From an archaeon (lineage in GTDB: Archaea; Asgardarchaeota; Thorarchaeia; Thorarchaeales; Thorarchaeaceae), in assembly GCA_024276825.1 (NCBI GenBank), contig JAJRWI010000007.1:1-64000 (forward strand): DNA of 64,000 nucleotides, in the 5' to 3' direction. How positions within the stretch are numbered: position 1 is the stretch's first letter; every line of letters begins with the position of its first letter. The translations under genes and the position numbers were made by a program. The notes below the pieces were generated by a model that was given only the letters and a program-made list of their open reading frames with translations, was not told the origin of the DNA and searched no databases. Below, one piece after another: positions 37,600 through 48,719 of the stretch.

Positions 37600-39051
<1,452 letters not shown>

Positions 39052-39054
39052 CTA

Positions 39055-40764
39055 TCAGATTCTATAAACATCTTTGACCTCCCTCACCACCAGATCAACA
39101 AGTGCATTCTCAGACGGCACAGGGATTACTAAGGCACCCACAGCCTTCAAGTCTCTGTGCGTCTTTGGTTCTCTCTTTTCTGAAGATCCAATATGAAAAA
39201 GGAAGAACCTATGACCTCGTGATACAAGGTCCCTTACTACTTTTACCAGATTACTCCAATTGACAATCTCAGCATCCGTCATCATAAGAACTATGACACT
39301 AGAGCCAGCGTCATTGCATAGTTGTCTGATTTCCTTGATTGGGGCGATGGTCCCAGACCCTTGATATGAGAGGAGAACTTTTTCTACGTTCATGCGTTCT
39401 CTTGTCCAGGTGCAATGTCGGACACCGCTGGAGAAGTTGATAGCTGCAAACCTTCGACCGCTACGTTCTGCAAAATCAAGCGCGGCAAATGCTGAAATTA
39501 GAGCCAGATGATAGATGCCCTTCATCTGTCCGCCTTGGTGACTAAAAGACATCGAACCGCTGGAATCAATGACTATCAGCATGTCAGGGATGTTCTTGGA
39601 GGGCTTGTCACCATAGGATGATACCTTCAACCATTTTCGTGTGGACATGTTTGGCACGAGAATGGGAAACGCCTGTAGAGATTGAACAAGGTCGAGTTCC
39701 TCAATTGGGTCACCAAGCCTCCATGGTTCAGGAGCGAGTGGCACAGATCCAGTAAGAACCCTCTCTCGTATTTCGAACCGTATTGCTGTTCTCGCCTTGG
39801 CCCTATACCAAAAGTGAATCCATTTGTCATGAACATTGCCAAACCCGGCAAGTAGAAATACTGCCTCAATGTCATTTAGATTTCCACCCCTTGACTCCAC
39901 CTCAATCGCCAGCCGTTCCATCTCGGAGTCGGCGTCGTCAATATGTTCACTCCTCGTGCATTGTCGGGCCTTGTCCCCATTTCGATCCTCAATCGGCGAT
40001 CCCATTATTGCATCCACATCCAATGGAACAAAGATTGTTCTTTCACCAGTACCGTCAGTGGCTGTGCAGAGCTCCTCCCCCTTTTCCATGGTTTCAGGTA
40101 GCCAGTCCTTCAAAATCTTGGCAATCTCGCTTGTTGCACGGGGCCATTTCGTTTCATTGTTCATGTATTTTCGAGCTGTTTCAATTACTCTCTCAGCAGT
40201 CAAATAGGTCTCCTGATCGACATGGGAAAGATGGGGGATGGGAAAACCCCACATGGCCCTATAGCAAGAAACAATCAGCTTCCATAAGCGGCTGTGTTCA
40301 GTTGAGCGAGCGGCCGAGTCATGAATGGAGAGTCCAATTCGCTCATGCGTAAGACTTGGAAACCTCTTGAGAAGATGTGAGTCTACGACCAGATCAGCGA
40401 ACAGGTTGCAGACAAACATTGCATGTTCATCGTCGATATGCTTTCTTGCAGATGCAAACATCATTCCGCTGGTCACCCCATCATAGGGGCATAGCAAATA
40501 ATGCTGAATCTCATGATGAGTTATGGACCTGATGAACCTGAATTTTGCGTTCGAATTAATGTGAAGAGGGACCCCAACAAGATTCAGATGAACAGTCCAG
40601 TCGTTGGAATCGATATAGAAATAGCTAGAGGATGATGGGTCGAATTCAAACTTGGGTGAGGGCAAAGGGGGATGATAGAAGTCTGCCAAAGCCTGAGAGT
40701 ATGCCCGGTCAGCAAGCTCCATAAGATGGTTAATCTCTGCTTGATCTAGCTGTGTAAGAGTCAA
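39055..40764 (-). CDS. vWA-domain protein with N-terminal HExxH metallopeptidase-like domain
   Basis: HHEIQHY (HEIQH at 40501-40515), NLFADLVVD; C-terminal MIDAS DSSGSM, GSGT, MTD. Confidence 0.82.
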   Translation of the reverse strand: MTLTQLDQAEINHLMELADRAYSQALADFYHPPLPSPKFEFDPSSSSYFYIDSNDWTVHLNLVGVPLHINSNAKFRFIRSITHHEIQHYLLCPYDGVTSGMMFASARKHIDDEHAMFVCNLFADLVVDSHLLKRFPSLTHERIGLSIHDSAARSTEHSRLWKLIVSCYRAMWGFPIPHLSHVDQETYLTAERVIETARKYMNNETKWPRATSEIAKILKDWLPETMEKGEELCTATDGTGERTIFVPLDVDAIMGSPIEDRNGDKARQCTRSEHIDDADSEMERLAIEVESRGGNLNDIEAVFLLAGFGNVHDKWIHFWYRAKARTAIRFEIRERVLTGSVPLAPEPWRLGDPIEELDLVQSLQAFPILVPNMSTRKWLKVSSYGDKPSKNIPDMLIVIDSSGSMSFSHQGGQMKGIYHLALISAFAALDFAERSGRRFAAINFSSGVRHCTWTRERMNVEKVLLSYQGSGTIAPIKEIRQLCNDAGSSVIVLMMTDAEIVNWSNLVKVVRDLVSRGHRFFLFHIGSSEKREPKTHRDLKAVGALVIPVPSENALVDLVVREVKDVYRI

Positions 40765-40776
40765 TACAGTTCCATC

Positions 40777-42483
40777 CTAGGATTTTATGAATGATTCAAC
40801 CTCTTTACGGACAATGACTGCCGAACTCCCACCTGAGACCTCGATGAAGACAGCAGAATCAGGAGAGTCGCCAGTAACATAGATAACAAGAGTGAGATCC
40901 TCTGTTCGAATCACTTTTCTCTTTGGTGGTTCAAGGGTTTCCTTTAGTATTGCAGTCATCTTTGGAAAGTGGATGCTTATGTTAGACCACAGATCAGTCC
41001 ATTGCTCAAAGCTCACAGTGAATCGTGAGAGTGTGAGTCTGTGAAGTTCTTCTGACACCCTTCGCAGAAGCATACTTCGGTTTGGAAAGTCGGTTTCACG
41101 GAGAAGAGTTTCTTGGACTTTTGTGAGAGCTGCGACATCTTTCTTGCTAATGCTCCTCTCAATCTCCTTGACCATTCTTACATAGTGTTTCTTGTTTAGC
41201 TCCTTAGCGAATGCAATATAATCAAGGCTTACTAGAAGGTCGCTCTTTGCCATCTCTTTGATTTCTGCAACATCCTCAGCAGTTGCATCACCATGCTCAA
41301 GTCTATGGATAAGGTCTAGCACCGGCCTTCTTTGAGCGAAACGAGCAGTGGCCATCTTTACAAGATGTGTAGTATATTCATACTTATCGCCATAAAATGG
41401 GCGACCCTCAATCTCATCAGATATATATTCAATTCTATGCCAAAAGACCAGCGGTGCAAGCGACTGTATTATCTCAATACTGACCTCTGTTGCTCCCAAT
41501 AACCAAGCCACAGCTTTAGAATAGCGATTCAGGTCCTTTGCCGCTCTTACACTGAGAGGTGTCAATACCTTATTACAAATGCTCTTTTTTGTGTTAAAAT
41601 GGCAACCGTCACATAGACCATTCTGAGGAGTGAGCGTTCTTGACTGACTCTTGTCCGTTCTAATGCATGCCCCAAACTCTCTAATCAGTGACCTCAGGTA
41701 TTCGGAAGCCTCGTCTGAAACAGGAACTTTGTCAGCAAGATTCCAAATAGTCAAGACTTCCTCTTCGTTGAGGATTGCTGGGACCTGCCATAGTTCATCA
41801 TATCCGAACAATCGTTCATCACGGGTTGAGAGAATTAGCTGTAGATCTGTGACCGTTGGCATAGTAATAGGCACCGCAATGCCAAACCTATCGAGGAAGG
41901 GTGGTGCCATCTCAAATGTTCCAGCATCAGTCGGATTAAGAGTTGCATAGAGGCAGTATTCCTCACATCGCATGACTTCATCATAATACTTTAACTCACC
42001 CTCTGCAAGCATTGAGAGAAGGATGTTCTGAGCATGAGGAGTGAGCCTGTTCACTTCATCAATGATCTTCCAGAAATCCTTGACAAAGGCCCTCCAAACT
42101 ACTTCTTCAATGCCATCTTTCATTAGGGGACCAGGTCTTAGTGTGGCGACCATCTTCTCTTCAGTTAGCTGTGGGTGGCCTCGAAGAATCCCCGCCTCGA
42201 TGTCATGAATCCTCTTTCCAGTCATCATACGACCCAGAAGCTTGACTAGTGTTGTCTTGCCACCACCGTGGCCGCCCACAAGCAGCATGGCAGATCTCGG
42301 GACCAGTGCATTGATCACACAGGCCCCAGCAATCAGGGGGATTCTTTTAGATTTCACCTTGCCATTGGTGCCTGTGAATTTGATTGTGAGATTTCTTGAA
42401 TGTACAAAGAGCCCACGACTCTCGACAGTGGCAATTACTCGAAGTACTTTCTGTCTCAATTCTTCATTCTGAGTGACTTGCAT
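40777..42483 (-). CDS. MoxR-family AAA+ ATPase
   Basis: Walker A GGHGGGKT, IDEVNRL...QNILL..LAEG and ATLNP...GTFEM.PPFLDRF; Cys-rich insert CIR..CDGC..C. Confidence 0.88.
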   Translation of the reverse strand: MQVTQNEELRQKVLRVIATVESRGLFVHSRNLTIKFTGTNGKVKSKRIPLIAGACVINALVPRSAMLLVGGHGGGKTTLVKLLGRMMTGKRIHDIEAGILRGHPQLTEEKMVATLRPGPLMKDGIEEVVWRAFVKDFWKIIDEVNRLTPHAQNILLSMLAEGELKYYDEVMRCEEYCLYATLNPTDAGTFEMAPPFLDRFGIAVPITMPTVTDLQLILSTRDERLFGYDELWQVPAILNEEEVLTIWNLADKVPVSDEASEYLRSLIREFGACIRTDKSQSRTLTPQNGLCDGCHFNTKKSICNKVLTPLSVRAAKDLNRYSKAVAWLLGATEVSIEIIQSLAPLVFWHRIEYISDEIEGRPFYGDKYEYTTHLVKMATARFAQRRPVLDLIHRLEHGDATAEDVAEIKEMAKSDLLVSLDYIAFAKELNKKHYVRMVKEIERSISKKDVAALTKVQETLLRETDFPNRSMLLRRVSEELHRLTLSRFTVSFEQWTDLWSNISIHFPKMTAILKETLEPPKRKVIRTEDLTLVIYVTGDSPDSAVFIEVSGGSSAVIVRKEVESFIKS

Positions 42484-42661
42484 GTCAGATAATCCCTAGA
42501 ATTTATCACTATTGAACTTTCACACTTTGCCGTTTAAAGATACGCTAATACGGACTTGATACCACGGTTATTAGTCAGCTACTGCTTAATAACGGGTGAT
42601 ATTGGCGCGATTCTCACACACTTGCCGAATGAATAATATAGACTGACGAGTTTGTTTCGTA

Positions 42662-43735
42662 ATGGAGGAATCAGAGTTATATTCAGAAATGGTGGAGCTA
42701 ATAGACTCGGACGAGTTCAAGAAAGAGAAGATAAGTCAGTATTCCATCAACATTGAGGCAGAGAACTTTCTTTCTACACTTGAGAGGTATGCAAGTGTTA
42801 AGAGCCATCTTGAAGAGATTGGACTATCGTTTAATGGCAGGGTGCTCATTATTGGCACTTCAGGCACAGATTTTCGAGCATTCGCGACCAAGATTGCAAA
42901 AGACAGGCAATACAAGATTGCAACGCTGAGGATGAATCAGATACTTGGTAATGTTGACAGGCAACTTGAAGGGATCAGACTACTGTTTGAGATGGCAAGA
43001 AGAAATGCACCTTGCATCCTTAGTCTTGAACAGGTCGATGTCATTGCTCCCAGCAAATCATCATCTGGAGCACTATTAATGCAAGAACTCAATAGTATAA
43101 CATGGAGCGAAAATGAGATAGTAACAATTGCCACAACCACTCAACCAGATAATATTGATAGAGATCTCTTGGAGTTATTCGGAAGTATCATAGTGGTTGA
43201 AGGAACCACTCTTGATGACCGCGTGCGTGTATTTGAATCTGTCTTAAGGAATAGAGAACATATGCCAGTGACAACCCTGGCTGAGCTGACTAGGGGTTGG
43301 AGCTTTATAGAAGTCATTCATCTTGCAATTAATATATTGATCAAAACATCTGATGATGAACAAAGGCAAACGAGAGAGGCAATTGAACGCCTGATTGAGG
43401 AGTCAAGAGTCATTCCAATTAGCAGAGCAGGTCTCATTGCATCAATCACCGAAAGAATCAGAGGGCAAGTAGTGGGTAGGTCAAAGCACATTGATGTTGA
43501 GTATCCTGAAGAGTTCGTAGAACAGCTGTATCTTGAGGCAGTTGCAGACGATTACTCGAGTACTCAGAGAGTCATTGATACTTTGAACTCAAACATGCCA
43601 CTCTCAGAGGAAGACTTGAGATTCTTAACACGGTATCCATTCATTTTGGCTGGGACATCTGAAGAAAGAACGATGAATCTGATTAAGGCTAAGAGGACAA
43701 TCGATAGACTCCGAAGAATAATGGGAAGAAAATAG
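42662..43735 (+). CDS. Classic-clade (CDC48/Vps4/PAN-like) AAA-domain protein with degenerate catalytic motifs
   Basis: VLIIGTSGTDFR (Walker A lacks GK), LFEMARRNAPCILSLEQVD (Walker B altered), IATTTQPDNIDRDLLELF (Arg fingers absent), R..VF and T.GWS..EV. Confidence 0.7.
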   Translation: MEESELYSEMVELIDSDEFKKEKISQYSINIEAENFLSTLERYASVKSHLEEIGLSFNGRVLIIGTSGTDFRAFATKIAKDRQYKIATLRMNQILGNVDRQLEGIRLLFEMARRNAPCILSLEQVDVIAPSKSSSGALLMQELNSITWSENEIVTIATTTQPDNIDRDLLELFGSIIVVEGTTLDDRVRVFESVLRNREHMPVTTLAELTRGWSFIEVIHLAINILIKTSDDEQRQTREAIERLIEESRVIPISRAGLIASITERIRGQVVGRSKHIDVEYPEEFVEQLYLEAVADDYSSTQRVIDTLNSNMPLSEEDLRFLTRYPFILAGTSEERTMNLIKAKRTIDRLRRIMGRK

Positions 43736-43749
43736 AGGGAATGTGAATA

Positions 43750-46700
43750 TTGAGTGAGAGTAGGGTGTTCATAGAGTCTGTTCGACTGCACAATTTTCTC
43801 TCATTTTATGATGAGACCGTCGAGCTCGATAGGGGTCTCACCGTGATAGTTGGGCATAACGGCTCAGGCAAGACCTCAATATTCCAAGGCATCAAATTTG
43901 CAATGGGATCCAATCAGCGAGATGAGCGATATCCCAAATGGAGCGATTTTGTAAGGAATGGCGCATCAATGGCAGAAGTTGAGGTCGTCTTGAACATTAA
44001 TGGAACAAAACGAAGAATACTTCGGAAAATTGACAGAAGGGGGCATCCACAGCCATATATTGATGGGAAGCGTGTGAAGGCCGCATATCTTCAGGAGTTT
44101 GTTTCATCATTGAAGTTTGATGTGAACAATAGTCTAGTATTCATGCCACAGGAGAAGATTAACTCGCTTCGCGATATGAACCCCATAACTGTCAGAAAAC
44201 TCATTGAGGAAGGAACTGGACTTGATGCTCTCAGGGAGAGAATTCTTGCTCAAGAAGTCAATGTTGACCTGAATAGAACCAGACTTCAACAGACTCTGGA
44301 AGAATCACATATAGTAGAAAAAGAACTTGAATACATTCGAGAGAAAGTAGAGCGGCTGAAGAAAAAGAGAGAATTGCAGAAAAGAGAGAATGTGCTTGAA
44401 ACAGAAGCAAAATGGGCCCTGTTTATTGATCGGACAGATAGGGTTGAAGAAACCAGAGAGAAGATTGAGGAACAGGAGCAGGGGCTATTAGAGATCTTTG
44501 AGAGATCCAAAGGCCTTCAGAGTGAGATTAAACAAAGAGAAGAAACAATCTCAGAGATTCAAGAGAAAATAGATAGTCTGAGAAAAGAACAGATGGACAT
44601 CCAATTGAAGATCAATAGAAAGGAAAATGAGATAGAAAGCAAGAGAAGTGAAGACAGACGGAATCTAGAGGAACTGAAAAAGCTTCAGGGATTGTTAAAG
44701 AAGAACGAAAGAACACTCAAAGATAGAAAAAAACGACTTGTTCAAATTGCTAAGAGAAGAGAGAAGCTCAAACTTAGGGCTGAAACTTTGAAGGAGTCAA
44801 TTGAAAAATACGAGAGGGACCTTGAAGGCGTAGAGGCTGCACTGGACAGATTTGCAGAATGGACCCAGAAGAGAAATGAGATGCAAGGTAAACTAAATGC
44901 AGTACTGTATGATAAAAAGAACAAGGAGTTTAAACTACGAAGCCTGAAAGAAAAGCTTCTGATCGAACAGGCAGAACTGGAAGATATCGAGCGGAGCTGG
45001 CAGGGAATCTGGTCATCCCTTGAAGATCTTGACGAACGAGAACTCAATCGAAGAATGGGAGCGATTGAGAGAGAGATCGAGTCATTAAATGAACAGAGAA
45101 TCAGTATGCTAAGCAGGCTATCTGATATCAAGAAGCAAATCAGTACAATAAAAGCTCAACTCGCTGAGAAGGACAATCGAATTCCTGAGGCCGTTCGATC
45201 ACTCAAAAGAGCCATTGATGAACATCAATTAGAGAGTGTCTATGGTCCCATCTCAGATCTTTTGGGAGGAGTGAGGGAGTTTGCAGAACTGCTTGAATGG
45301 GTGTTTCCAGATAATTCGATATTCTCATTCATCGTGACTGATAAAGCAGATGGCATTCTAGTTCAGAAACTGCGTGATGGAATCGGTGCTCCATCACCAA
45401 TTGTCATAGTCAAAGGCAATGCCACTGCGGAGCCCATTAAGTTGCCAAAAGACCCATCTATAATCGGACCATTATGGGACCTCTTGGAACTTGACTCACA
45501 TCTGGCAGAGGTATTAAAAGCGGCATATGGAGAGTTCATTGTTGTAAAGACAAATCAAGCCGCCAAGCGAATTGCATCAAGAATTGGGATGAATGTGGTT
45601 TCTTTAAAGGGAGCAGTCATAATTCAGAGAGAAGCTTCTCTAATCAGTCTGCCAGTCATTGAACCCAGCGGGATATTGGTCACTGCCCCCTTGCAGACAA
45701 GACTAAAAGCGCTTCAGAGAGAAGAGGTCAGGGTCAATAAGCAAATCACCGAGATAATGAGAAAAACGGAGGAGTTGAGAGAAGAGGGCGAGCAAGTCAG
45801 AAACACACTCAGTCAGATCCGTTCTAGGACTGAGGTCTGGGAGAAGAGAAGGGTATTGTCTGGAAGCATAACAACACTACAAGAACGCATTGCAGTTCTT
45901 AATGATGAACTTGTAGAAATCGATAAGCAACATGGTGAGTATGAGCGAGGTCTCAGAAGGCTTGACGAATCACAGCCCCCAGAGAGAGAGAAACTTGTGA
46001 GCAGACAAAGGGCATTAAACTTCAAACTCCGTGAGCTTGCCAAGGAGCAGCTAGGTATCGAACATAGTTTCGACTCATTATTTGACGAGGAAGATGATAT
46101 TGAAAATAAGATTAAGCAGCTTAAAGAAGACAATGAGATGTTATCAGAGCAGATTATTGAAATCCGTGAGAGCATTGATAATTCAGAGTCAGCTATATCT
46201 GATATAATGCAAGAGATTGAAATGTTACAACAATCATTCGATAATACCAATATCGAGATAATTAGATTAAAGGAAGAACTGGTGGAGAATGAGGAGGAGT
46301 TGTCAGAACTACGTGAAAGACTGGTGGAGTTGAATGTTGCAATCCGCACACATAAGACCGATGTGGCCCATCTAAGAAGACAACTCACGATTCTTGAAGA
46401 CGAACTTGAACGGCTCAGTTCAGAACTCAAAGAGAAGACTCGGCCAGAGAGTACAAGGCCTTTGGATCAGGTTCAGGAAGAACTTGTGGAAGTAAAAATA
46501 CTATTGAAAAGTTATGAAGATGTTTCTGAATCAGTGGCTCACAAGCAAGAGAAACTGACAGAGCGGCTGAACAGACTTGTGGAGAAATCGGCAGAACTCC
46601 AAAGGGAGCTGGAAGAGGCAGAACTTGCTGTTAAGAATATCAAGGAGCAATATCATAACGAAATGGGCGAAATGTTGGCTGACATTCAGAATAAGATTAA

Positions 46701-47118
46701 TGCAATCCTCGAACGAATTGACTTCCCAGGAACTGTCAGACTTGTACTTAAAAACATGGGCAACGAGTATGGTGTTGAGATCAAGTCAAACATCAAAGAC
46801 ACAGAGTATAAAGACATCAATGCCTGTTCAGGTGGGGAGAGGTCACTCTTGTCCCTTGGATTAATCCTCGCACTTCAAGAGTTCAATGCTGCCCCCACAT
46901 ACGCCTTTGATGAGATTGATGTCTTTCTTGATGCCACCAATACCGAGAACGTCGCATCGCTCCTTCATAATGCTTCTCTTGCAAGTCAGTTTATCGTGTT
47001 TACACCTGCAAGAAGTACTATCTTTCTTAGATATGCAGACAAGTTACTGGGAGTTGCGCAAGGGAGAAACAGATCATCAGTAATAATTGAGGGACCAAGG
47101 TGTGGGAGGAATGACTAA
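43750..47118 (+). CDS. SMC-family ATPase, SMC5/6-like
   Basis: LHNFLS, VGHNGSGKTS, Q-loop FMPQEKI, long coiled coils, hinge VYGPISDL..FIVTD..D, SGGERS, FDEIDVFLD and QFIVFTP. Confidence 0.92.
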   Translation: MSESRVFIESVRLHNFLSFYDETVELDRGLTVIVGHNGSGKTSIFQGIKFAMGSNQRDERYPKWSDFVRNGASMAEVEVVLNINGTKRRILRKIDRRGHPQPYIDGKRVKAAYLQEFVSSLKFDVNNSLVFMPQEKINSLRDMNPITVRKLIEEGTGLDALRERILAQEVNVDLNRTRLQQTLEESHIVEKELEYIREKVERLKKKRELQKRENVLETEAKWALFIDRTDRVEETREKIEEQEQGLLEIFERSKGLQSEIKQREETISEIQEKIDSLRKEQMDIQLKINRKENEIESKRSEDRRNLEELKKLQGLLKKNERTLKDRKKRLVQIAKRREKLKLRAETLKESIEKYERDLEGVEAALDRFAEWTQKRNEMQGKLNAVLYDKKNKEFKLRSLKEKLLIEQAELEDIERSWQGIWSSLEDLDERELNRRMGAIEREIESLNEQRISMLSRLSDIKKQISTIKAQLAEKDNRIPEAVRSLKRAIDEHQLESVYGPISDLLGGVREFAELLEWVFPDNSIFSFIVTDKADGILVQKLRDGIGAPSPIVIVKGNATAEPIKLPKDPSIIGPLWDLLELDSHLAEVLKAAYGEFIVVKTNQAAKRIASRIGMNVVSLKGAVIIQREASLISLPVIEPSGILVTAPLQTRLKALQREEVRVNKQITEIMRKTEELREEGEQVRNTLSQIRSRTEVWEKRRVLSGSITTLQERIAVLNDELVEIDKQHGEYERGLRRLDESQPPEREKLVSRQRALNFKLRELAKEQLGIEHSFDSLFDEEDDIENKIKQLKEDNEMLSEQIIEIRESIDNSESAISDIMQEIEMLQQSFDNTNIEIIRLKEELVENEEELSELRERLVELNVAIRTHKTDVAHLRRQLTILEDELERLSSELKEKTRPESTRPLDQVQEELVEVKILLKSYEDVSESVAHKQEKLTERLNRLVEKSAELQRELEEAELAVKNIKEQYHNEMGEMLADIQNKINAILERIDFPGTVRLVLKNMGNEYGVEIKSNIKDTEYKDINACSGGERSLLSLGLILALQEFNAAPTYAFDEIDVFLDATNTENVASLLHNASLASQFIVFTPARSTIFLRYADKLLGVAQGRNRSSVIIEGPRCGRND

Positions 47119-47752
47119 AGCAGTGATGCAAGATATTGCCAAAAGAGTCTTCGCGCTATCAAAGCAAGTTCAGCAGGGGGAATTGGATCCTCTAGATGTG
47201 CCACTTACAGAAGAATATCAGACTCTATGTCGTTTAATTGCAGATGTCAGCGACCGGCTGGATATTGATGAGATGCTAAATGCATTGCTTAATCAAAAGG
47301 TCATAAGGATACAGGAGTTAGCAAGAGTACTTGCAACACCTGACATCTATGTTGAATATCTCAGATCAATCCCTGTCAGAAGGCTGGCCAATTTGATGTC
47401 TTACAAGAGACCATTGGTCATTGCAAGACTAGATCTTGATAGTATGACGGCATCACTCACAAGAGTAATGGCAATTATAGATTCAATCTCTGCAGATCCT
47501 CCCGAAGAGATAGTCCCCGAAATTTCAGAAGTGCCTCCTGATTTCAAGATTGACTCTGAGAGTGCCCTTTTCATTGACGAGATGAGGGAGTTTGAAGAAA
47601 CCATTCCAAGGGGAGTGAGAGTGCCATTAAACACCATCATTTTTTCGGAGGATGAGGAGGTTCATCTGAGACGATTTCTGTTTGTGATACTCCTGATAAG
47701 TAGAGGAGATCTGGTGTACTACAAAGAAACACAAGAAATCATGCGAGAATGA
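47111..47752 (+). CDS. Kleisin (ScpA/Nse4-like)
   Basis: GELDPLDVPL resembles the ScpA N-terminus; C-terminal RFLFVILLISRGDL resembles the kleisin winged helix; ATG at 47111 follows GGAGG and overlaps the SMC stop. Confidence 0.72.
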   Translation: MTKAVMQDIAKRVFALSKQVQQGELDPLDVPLTEEYQTLCRLIADVSDRLDIDEMLNALLNQKVIRIQELARVLATPDIYVEYLRSIPVRRLANLMSYKRPLVIARLDLDSMTASLTRVMAIIDSISADPPEEIVPEISEVPPDFKIDSESALFIDEMREFEETIPRGVRVPLNTIIFSEDEEVHLRRFLFVILLISRGDLVYYKETQEIMRE

Positions 47753-47764
47753 GGAGATAAAGAC

Positions 47765-48277
47765 TTGAACGAGTTCACCATATTGATGAAACTTCTCACA
47801 AGAACGGGCGACCCCATTGGGTCATCAATGGAGGACATGCTGGAAGCATTGGATGTGCCCGAGGACGTGGGACCCCAGTATGTATATTCTCTATTGAAGG
47901 GCCTACATCTTAAGCTCAAGGAGATAGGGCTCACAATTCAATTTAATCCATTAAGTCAGGTTTACTATATCGACACTGTTACTAGCTTCGAAGCAATTCC
48001 TGACGAGTCGGGTCTGGCTGATAGATTGGCAGCAACGTTGTTGATTATCATCACATTGGCCTTTCAAGAGGGGGGGTGGGTTTCATTGGGAAGAATCAAG
48101 GAGTTTAGAAGAAAGAGTTTGGCTGGAATTCGTGCTGATATTAGAGATCTTGAGAGTCTGGGCTATGTTGAGTTTGACAGGATTAATGAGCAGGTCAGGC
48201 CTGGGACAAGGATCCCATTTGAAATAGACTATGAAGAGTTCTTTAGAAGGCTCTCAGATTTCAAAGAAGATTCATGA
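47765..48277 (+). CDS. KITE protein (tandem winged helix; Nse3/MAGE- or ScpB-like)
   Basis: LHLKLKEIGLTI...YYI followed by TLLIIITLAFQEGGWVS..RIKEF and LESLGYVE; directly after the kleisin. Confidence 0.65.
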   Translation: MNEFTILMKLLTRTGDPIGSSMEDMLEALDVPEDVGPQYVYSLLKGLHLKLKEIGLTIQFNPLSQVYYIDTVTSFEAIPDESGLADRLAATLLIIITLAFQEGGWVSLGRIKEFRRKSLAGIRADIRDLESLGYVEFDRINEQVRPGTRIPFEIDYEEFFRRLSDFKEDS

Positions 48278-48332
48278 AACAATGATAAATTTGTCATGCT
48301 TTTCATTCCTCTGTCAATAGTTTTATCAACCC

Positions 48333-48719
48333 ATGTCATCCTTCAGAAATCGAACAGATATGTCACACCGCAGAGCACTTAGATTCTCAAAGACAACCTG
48401 CCCCTACTGTGGGGGACGAGAGGTTGCTCGCGATGACCTAAAAGGTGACCTTATCTGTACAACGTGCGGTGAAGTTGTTTCGCGAAGAGAAACCCGTGCG
48501 GTTGGAAAATTCGATGTTGCCCAGACTCTGAAGAGAAATGGTAAGATGGACTTTAGAACCTTAAGAGAAGCAACTGGTGCTTCCGATGACAAGTTGTTTG
48601 CAGTCCTACAGAGCATGATTCAGATGGGGCTGTTACAGGAGATTGGAGGCGTTTACTCTCTCACTAAGAGGGGGCAACGTTGGTATCGTCAGCGATTAGG
48701 TCAAGAATGGGGATATTGA
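48333..48719 (+). CDS. TFIIB-type Zn-ribbon plus winged-helix protein
   Basis: CPYCGG..V.RD...GDLICTTCGEV; C-terminal L..M...GLL....YSLTKRG. Confidence 0.75.
   Translation: MSSFRNRTDMSHRRALRFSKTTCPYCGGREVARDDLKGDLICTTCGEVVSRRETRAVGKFDVAQTLKRNGKMDFRTLREATGASDDKLFAVLQSMIQMGLLQEIGGVYSLTKRGQRWYRQRLGQEWGY

Follow-up and report, generated by a model that had tools for sequence, protein, structure and literature searches.

The DNA studied here, referred to as the window, is a stretch of 64,000 nucleotides (positions 1 to 64,000 of contig JAJRWI010000007.1, assembly GCA_024276825.1), placed by its named relatives in Thorarchaeota, within Asgard archaea. It carries the Thorarchaeial copy of the second SMC complex of Asgard archaea, which has been published as ‘SMC5/6-related’, plus two accessory modules. 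One is a gene for a degenerate AAA protein, pAAA, which heads the operon of the second SMC protein (SMC2), a probable kleisin and a putative KITE subunit; the other is a divergently oriented pair of genes that encode a MoxR-class AAA+ ATPase and a partner protein with a von Willebrand factor A (VWA) domain and a predicted zincin-like domain (Table 1). We describe the gene content, the conserved motifs and the folds of these modules and their conserved linkage in other Asgard genomes. On this evidence, the MoxR-VWA pair is probably functionally coupled to the SMC2 operon.

Table 1. Genes and spacer of the SMC2 locus in the window (positions of the 64,000-nt stretch).
Feature	Positions	Strand	Size and features
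Zincin-like (HExxH) protein with C-terminal VWA/MIDAS domain, adaptor partner of MoxR	39055-40764	-	569 aa; weak VWA_2 match and HEIQH
MoxR-class AAA+ ATPase with long C-terminal extension	40777-42483	-	568 aa; AAA_5, AAA_3, AAA_lid_2
Divergent intergenic region	42484-42661		178 bp; promoter-like block at 42604-42640
pAAA, Cdc48-type AAA protein with dead Walker motifs, leads the SMC operon	42662-43735	+	357 aa; PF00004
SMC2, second divergent SMC paralogue	43750-47118	+	1122 aa; SMC_N, SMC_hinge
Putative kleisin	47111-47752	+	213 aa (ATG 47111) or 221 aa (TTG 47087); no Pfam match
Putative KITE (tandem winged-helix) subunit	47765-48277	+	170 aa; from context, no Pfam match
Small protein with TFIIB-type zinc ribbon and winged-helix-like part, end of the run	48333-48719	+	128 aa; Zn_Ribbon_TF

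Linkage of the MoxR-VWA pair to the SMC2 operon

The search with kleisin, pAAA, KITE and VWA proteins or profiles covered first 40 relatives and afterwards 250 genomes sampled from the whole phylum. About 30 loci were fetched and annotated with family hidden Markov models, as were 80 named VWA-anchored loci. Families are denoted by numbers (f1, Thorarchaeaceae; f2, its sister family; f9, Lokiarchaeia); f7 and f8 are known only as belonging to the same phylum in the genome listing.

In Thorarchaeaceae the block is single-copy and near-universal, with VWA present in 52 of 59 genomes. Thirty-three genomes have VWA and KITE on one contig, and in all 33 the two modules are divergent and 7-15 kb apart, without a counter-example. 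In 14 of the 47 genomes with both genes they are on separate contigs; many of these genomes keep VWA, MoxR and pAAA together. The block breaks across contigs often between MoxR and pAAA or within the SMC gene, which may reflect an assembly difficulty at this locus. The sister family f2 keeps the layout despite a gene of 1164 aa inserted between MoxR and VWA. This inserted gene encodes a DUF7743 domain and lies on the opposite strand (L021:12396-15890, genome G025).

A different arrangement was found in f7 (three genomes of two genera) and in f8. Here the genes form one co-directional operon in the order MoxR, VWA, pAAA and SMC2, followed by kleisin and KITE where the contig continues, and there are 4-bp overlaps at the VWA/pAAA and pAAA/SMC2 junctions. 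None of the genes flanking this operon is shared with the window. One more order, kleisin, KITE, MoxR and VWA, is seen on a short contig of 4.3 kb (G105:C104), where the VWA frame decays after about 200 codons. In total, the pair is linked to the SMC2 operon in at least four families, and adjacency is kept across classes in which SMC2 is 25-27% and kleisin 20% or less identical. The MoxR-VWA pair has also a second association: at seven Loki-type loci and in f24 genus g48 it faces the canonical SMC-ScpB genes in convergent orientation. The loci of this kind are L108 (G215:C1:1712182-1720181), L055, L053, L056, L059, L062, L088 and L090. Selection on co-expression is suggested because the adjacency outlasts class-level divergence while the flanks turn over completely, because f7 and f8 have the genes fused in a single operon with translational coupling, and because the pair is associated a second time with an SMC operon, the canonical one.

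Several observations weigh against this coupling. They could be explained if the two modules were neighbours by descent only, with MoxR and zincin-VWA forming a general chaperone or remodeller pair that has another client, and with synteny inherited without functional meaning. In Lokiarchaeia, KITE was found in 52 and VWA in 41 of 54 genomes, yet the two never share a contig, and most Loki copies of the pair have housekeeping neighbours (GatC, HAD hydrolase, AhpC and PAC2 genes). The modules are never linked in f24 either, and in a one-contig genome of this family they are 473 kb apart. No VWA match was obtained in 12 of the 52 KITE-positive Loki genomes, some of which are 99-100% complete, nor, at the match threshold of E ≤ 1e-30, in f19 (KITE in six of six genomes) and f16, both of which have the operon. 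Methanosarcinales, Methanocellales, Nanoarchaeota and bacteria also have homologues of the pair, but no SMC2 operon that could be recognised. Within Thorarchaeaceae, four of the five genomes of genus g4 lack the whole block, which is therefore dispensable, and synteny often includes the NfnAB-like genes flanking VWA as well, so that conservation inside this family alone proves little. Finally, the divergent and the co-directional layouts are one local inversion apart and thus do not represent independent origins of adjacency. Because the modules are unlinked in Loki and f24, and some genomes have only one of them, the coupling is facultative rather than obligate. Descent alone, however, does not readily account for adjacency at class-level divergence with fully replaced flanks, for the 4-bp overlaps within a single operon in f7 and f8, or for the separate position of the pair beside the canonical SMC operon in g48 and a Loki subgroup, and we consider it unlikely.

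An initial annotation of this DNA, made from the sequence alone, had proposed that the seven genes may form one module and had pointed to chance adjacency as a worry. The latter is largely excluded by the comparison of genomes. The idea of one module agrees with the conserved neighbourhood and with the fused operon of f7 and f8, but not as an obligate unit. The neighbourhood comparison across Asgard genomes that it suggested as a check gave different outcomes for the two accessory modules: pAAA heads the operon in eight of eight families, whereas MoxR-VWA is unlinked in Loki and f24.

A run of genes resembling the one described here was noticed outside Asgard archaea. A metagenome-assembled genome of Nanoarchaeota (L097:6706-14425) has five co-directional genes, for an AAA protein, a MoxR-like protein, a homologue of the HExxH-VWA protein, a coiled-coil protein and a TrmB-type winged-helix-turn-helix protein. 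The AAA protein is a classic one of 521 aa with intact Walker A and B motifs, and the coiled-coil protein has 695 aa and no match to an SMC head. The Asgard arrangement may have a distant analogue in this run.

Components of the two modules

The listing of open reading frames (ORFs) agrees exactly with the initial annotation in the seven ORFs and their strands, in the divergent spacer of 178 bp and in the rightward run's gaps of 14, -8, 12 and 55 nt, where the value of -8 uses the kleisin start codon ATG at 47111. The MoxR and VWA genes are 12 nt apart.

SMC2 is a split-head SMC ATPase with a long coiled coil and a hinge. It matches the Pfam domains SMC_N (135 bits, residues 7-1108) and SMC_hinge (28.9 bits, cut-off 22.5) and, end to end, the NCBIfam model TIGR02169 with 303-309 bits (cut-off 729). 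The canonical SMC of the source genome, encoded on contig C52 and followed by ScpA and ScpB, reaches 911 bits with the same model. Since the SMC of the window scores far below it, we regard SMC2 as a second paralogue that has kleisin-like and KITE-like genes of its own. Two complete SMC-kleisin-kite operons are present in many TACK and Asgard archaea, and phylogeny puts one of the two in an SMC5/6-related clade (van Hooff et al., bioRxiv 10.1101/2024.01.07.573240). The label ‘SMC5/6-like’ used in the initial annotation has therefore the backing of this published phylogeny, but by plain similarity SMC2 appears nearer to archaeal Smc: its nearest PDB sequences found by phmmer are Pyrococcus Smc heads (E 2.5e-29), while Smc5 and Smc6 follow at about E 1e-13. 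The hinge motif G-x6-G-x3-GG was considered as a hallmark of Smc5/6. It is absent from 23 of 23 SMC2 proteins and present in the canonical SMC of the genome, but absent also from two other canonical Asgard SMCs, and it was rejected as it does not discriminate. Among the seven proteins there is no Pfam domain matching the Nse2 SUMO ligase, the Nse1 RING or Nse5/6, although no search was aimed at them. In genomes of f24 we observed a third SMC-like gene of about 1480-1495 aa (G215:C1:569146-573531, G104:C6, G170:C6 and G238:C86), which is additional to the second SMC operon and to the canonical SMC (the canonical gene was found in g48, none in g55).

The gene that directly follows the SMC gene in every lineage among the annotated loci encodes a protein that is probably a kleisin, judging by its position and size, several weak leads and the literature. 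No NCBIfam model matched it, there was no meaningful Pfam match in any of 15 members, and an alignment of 15 sequences revealed a conserved C-terminal motif, F..VL.L.S.G.L.YD. In a search of its profile against PDB, C-terminal winged-helix chains of ScpA were among the best matches, weak ones at E 0.1-0.6, and its nearest named clusters in the ESM Atlas carry Nse4_C (score 0.92, with 18% of members; score 0.83, with 76%). The protein evolves fast, with 38% identity inside one genus.

The next gene, conserved after the kleisin gene in f1, f2, f7, f8, f9, f16, f19 and f24, is a putative KITE gene, an assignment taken from the context and from the operons of van Hooff et al. Neither Pfam nor NCBIfam models matched the protein, and no PDB sequence match to ScpB, Nse1/3 or MukE was found; the best PDB matches of its profile are winged-helix-turn-helix regulators at E 0.0025 or worse. 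The hhalign alignment with three canonical ScpB sequences is collinear at a probability of 1%, and the ESM Atlas yielded MAGE at 0.78 only. A search for homologues with the KITE profile retrieved close Thorarchaeota-type matches only and did not reach TACK archaea.

The leading protein, pAAA, matches PF00004 with 43 bits. Its profile matches Cdc48/p97 chains in PDB (both D1 and D2 domains) at E 1e-45, which indicates that pAAA derives from the classic AAA clade. In the window its Walker A motif is GTSGTDFR, without Lys, and its Walker B motif is LSLEQVD. The Walker A Lys and the Walker B Asp-Glu are lost in Thorarchaeaceae, f2, f7, f8, Loki and f24, while pAAA of f19 and f16 retains a GxxGxGKT Walker A with the Walker B Glu out of its canonical place (DN, ED). 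Much of the AAA core is missing from the f7 proteins, and in one genome the gene is split. The most conserved part is the C-terminal helical domain of about 80 residues; a search for homologues of this domain recovered itself and one close relative only and did not reach TACK archaea. In about 50 Asgard genomes (f1, f2, f8, f9, f16, f19 and f24), the gene shares the strand of KITE and lies 4-5 kb upstream of it, and the order pAAA, SMC2, kleisin and KITE is found in the fetched f7 loci as well, so that pAAA heads the operon in all eight Asgard families examined. From its motifs, pAAA is to be seen as an AAA-derived scaffold and not as a working Cdc48/p97-like ATPase. The dead ATPase motifs together with the conserved C-terminal helical domain suggest that it is most likely a non-catalytic subunit or adaptor of the SMC2 complex. 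We also considered that MoxR replaces the lost ATPase activity of pAAA. This idea is weakened. Walker A is intact in f19 and f16 alone, both of which gave no VWA match, but in these two lineages, the only ones involved, the Walker B Glu is non-canonical as well.

The MoxR protein is the best conserved product of the block, with 66-72% identity across genera of Thorarchaeaceae and 47-50% in f2 and in other families and classes. It matches the Pfam domains AAA_5 (47.9 bits), AAA_3 (27.6 bits, cut-off 27) and AAA_lid_2 (25.3 bits). Its Walker A (GGHGGGKTT) and Walker B (IIDEVNR) motifs are conserved in 18 orthologues. The same orthologues share a Cys cluster, C..CxxCH..C (residues 272-303), that falls between the AAA_5 core and the lid matched by Pfam. 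This cluster may be a small zinc-binding insert.

The partner protein was modelled at full length with AlphaFold2 (mean predicted local distance difference test score, pLDDT, 86; predicted template modelling score, pTM, 0.79). Residues 389-569 of the model have a VWA fold, with VIA as a match at Z 18.0 (root-mean-square deviation 2.4 over 162 residues); the fold also resembles the NorD VWA domain of the NorQ-NorD complex (Z 16.6) and the Rea1/MDN1 domain with the metal ion-dependent adhesion site (MIDAS; Z 14-15). The MIDAS residues D400, S402, S404, T472 and D497 are invariant in 49 homologues. Thus, a MoxR gene with intact Walker A and B motifs adjoins here a VWA gene with a complete MIDAS (DxSxS, T, D).

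As searches with the full-length model yielded the VWA domain only, the N-terminal domain was folded separately (pLDDT 86.7). Its residues 9-153 match zincins, namely the predicted zincin 3e11 (Z 7.3), ZMPSTE24 (Z 6.6), selecase (Z 6.3) and jannalysin and abylysin (Z 6.1-6.2), and also HtpX, BepA and M1 aminopeptidases. These matches are modest, every Z being below 8 and the Foldseek probabilities of 0.95-0.99 being accompanied by E values of 0.4-1. The motif HExxH (HEIQH; H84, E85 and H88) is located on helix 71-90 of the model, and D95 and D124 are conserved candidates for the third metal ligand. The model suggests that the N-terminal domain is zincin-like. All Asgard copies retain HExxH save those of families f17 and f20, and the motif is strictly retained in every Asgard copy that accompanies an SMC2 operon. 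The bacterial homologues have HGxxH, with the catalytic Glu gone and both His kept. In the families without HExxH, f20 and f17 (L115:11470-12921, L118:5911-7248 and L119:12777-14099), a gene for 440-483 aa with no family match precedes MoxR and VWA on the same strand and may encode another client or a third subunit.

Two further calls of the initial annotation were thus corroborated. What it had named a pseudo-AAA protein is a degenerate protein of Cdc48 type, by the profile match and the dead Walker motifs, and in its MoxR/HExxH-vWA pair the Walker motifs, the MIDAS and HExxH are intact and conserved.

Possible roles of the MoxR-VWA pair

In the characterised MoxR-VWA systems (CbbQO, NorQD, RavA-ViaA and Rea1), the AAA+ ring provides the force and the MIDAS contacts the client at an acidic residue. 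By analogy, we lean towards a role of the MoxR-VWA pair as an ATP-driven remodeller of the SMC2 complex. An SMC2 homodimer, the kleisin and KITE would form the core of this complex, with pAAA as a non-catalytic subunit or adaptor. The MIDAS of the zincin-VWA protein would dock on an acidic residue of pAAA or of a subunit of the SMC2 complex, and a MoxR hexamer would spend ATP to assemble, load, release or dismantle the complex. The conserved Glu of HExxH leaves room for proteolysis, and the zincin domain may cut a subunit. The client is read from the gene neighbourhood, and all contacts between MoxR-VWA and the SMC2 complex, as well as which way the reaction runs, are our inference; it is by analogy alone that the pair would load, unload or open the SMC ring or cleave the kleisin. 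Predicted complexes of the full zincin-VWA protein with pAAA and with the acidic linker of the kleisin (104-172) had a score of 0.00 in both runs, below the mark, and count neither way.

In eukaryotes, SMC rings are regulated by Nse5/6, the loader of Smc5/6, by Wapl and separase in the case of cohesin, and by the Cdc48/p97 segregase. A stronger version of the remodelling role would make MoxR and zincin-VWA a dedicated ATP-driven machine for SMC ring release, which docks through the MIDAS and opens or cuts the kleisin or pAAA, as a counterpart of Wapl and separase or of Cdc48-type extraction; pAAA would then be a fossil of an older ATP-driven loader. The likeness to Nse5/6, Wapl, separase and Cdc48/p97 is functional only (loading, opening or cleaving the ring); no homology to Nse5/6, Wapl or separase was seen, although no search was aimed at it, and although pAAA derives from a Cdc48-type AAA protein, Cdc48 is a hexamer, whereas pAAA of the window is a single degenerate AAA domain. 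We find this version distinctly unlikely; if it were true, regulated loading and release of SMC by machinery of a non-eukaryotic type would already have been present in the Asgard lineage.

Eukaryotic Smc5/6 restricts extrachromosomal DNA. Hence a role in defence could be considered, in which SMC2, kleisin and KITE would sense plasmid or viral DNA, as in the Wadjet (JetABCD) and Lamassu systems that likewise combine SMC, kleisin and KITE with an extra enzymatic component, and MoxR-VWA-zincin would act as the effector or switch. The PADLOC models mad3 (135 bits), LmuB (70 bits) and JetC (41 bits) match SMC2, and IetA, the ATPase of an ATPase-protease defence pair, weakly matches pAAA (31 bits); the fast evolution of the kleisin within one genus and the absence of the block from four of five g4 genomes would also fit. 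The matches of SMC2, however, are generic ones to the head and the coiled coil, and the PADLOC scan of the seven proteins shows no nuclease or other effector, neither the JetD Toprim nuclease nor one of LmuA type. The block is not patchy or confined to islands, but vertically inherited and near-universal in Thorarchaeaceae (the operon is near-universal in Loki too), and occupies a stable chromosomal position beside NfnAB-like and hydrogenase-like metabolic genes. Because of this near-universal vertical inheritance, the fixed metabolic neighbourhood and the lack of a nuclease or PADLOC effector, the defence role is weakened, and we judge it improbable.

Least probable, in our estimate, is that MoxR-VWA acts as an assembly chaperone only, once during biogenesis (in folding or assembly of SMC2 or pAAA, or in metal insertion) and not on the DNA-engaged ring, with HExxH being structural: several MoxR-VWA pairs are maturation factors (NorQ-NorD, CoxD-CoxE and the Mg-chelatase BchI-BchD), NorD is among the closest structures of the VWA domain and the bacterial HGxxH implies that some family members can keep the site while lacking catalysis, but the catalytic Glu is strictly kept beside the SMC2 operon, and we know of no requirement of SMC complexes for metal insertion. 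No result obtained here separates the chaperone role from remodelling.

The SMC-kleisin-KITE core of the locus is already known. For its two accessories, pAAA and the pair of MoxR and zincin-VWA, no description was found in the papers that could be searched. The loci resemble the operons described by van Hooff et al. in that a second SMC shares one operon with its own kleisin and KITE and a canonical SMC-ScpA-ScpB set is present in the same genome. They differ in that three genes were described there, whereas here pAAA heads the operon in eight families and MoxR-VWA is linked to it in at least four. Neither that paper nor its seven supplementary files mention AAA, MoxR or von Willebrand in this context, and full-text searches of the literature that paired MoxR with SMC, kleisin, vWA or Asgard turned up no relevant paper. 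The initial claim of novelty applies to the coupling with MoxR-VWA and to pAAA, but not to the core. With CbbQ-CbbO, NorQ-NorD, RavA-ViaA and Rea1/Midasin the pair shares an intact MoxR AAA+ gene adjoining a VWA gene with a complete MIDAS, and the VWA model superposes on NorD and Rea1/MDN1; the VWA protein of the window is different in bearing an N-terminal zincin-like HExxH domain, and its presumed client, an SMC complex, is different as well, the searchable literature having no MoxR pair reported to act on one.

Asgard archaea are the closest known relatives of eukaryotes, in whose chromosome biology loaders, releasers and a kleisin protease are central, and we know of no account of how SMC rings get onto and off DNA in archaea. 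The genetic link of an SMC5/6-related complex with a dead AAA protein and a MoxR-VWA-zincin pair of active type provides concrete candidate regulators, which are small soluble proteins, and is of interest for research on SMC complexes and on eukaryogenesis. The six-gene operons of other Asgard classes represent a compact and naturally co-expressed set. If the link were spurious, pAAA would still be a universal fourth gene of the published three-gene operon.

Divergent spacer, last gene and flanking genes

The spacers between MoxR and pAAA of eight Thorarchaeaceae loci from several genera were aligned with MAFFT and share a block, GGCGCG-N(~16)-CCGAAGATGTAATAT. In the window this block consists of the GGCGCG box, about 16 nt and then CCGAAG(A)TG(T)AATAT, which resembles a B recognition element and TATA box (BRE/TATA-like CCGAAG/TGAATAATATA) and ends about 22 nt before the start codon of pAAA. 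The block looks like a BRE/TATA-like promoter preceded by an operator.

The last gene of the run was found only in Thorarchaeaceae and the sister family f2; none was seen after KITE in f7, f8, Loki and f24. Its product matches Zn_Ribbon_TF with 31 bits (cut-off 29) and, weakly, HemN_C and HVO_A0261_N over residues 62-119, and is 62-83% identical across genera of Thorarchaeaceae and 48% in f2. This small protein, with its zinc ribbon and winged-helix-like part, is a candidate regulator.

On the VWA side of the block, a stop codon (38404-38406) divides the NfnB-like gene of the window, leaving one ORF at 37600-38406 (268 aa) and another at 38425-39051 (208 aa); in 12 related Thorarchaeaceae loci the homologue is a single ORF of 477-508 aa.

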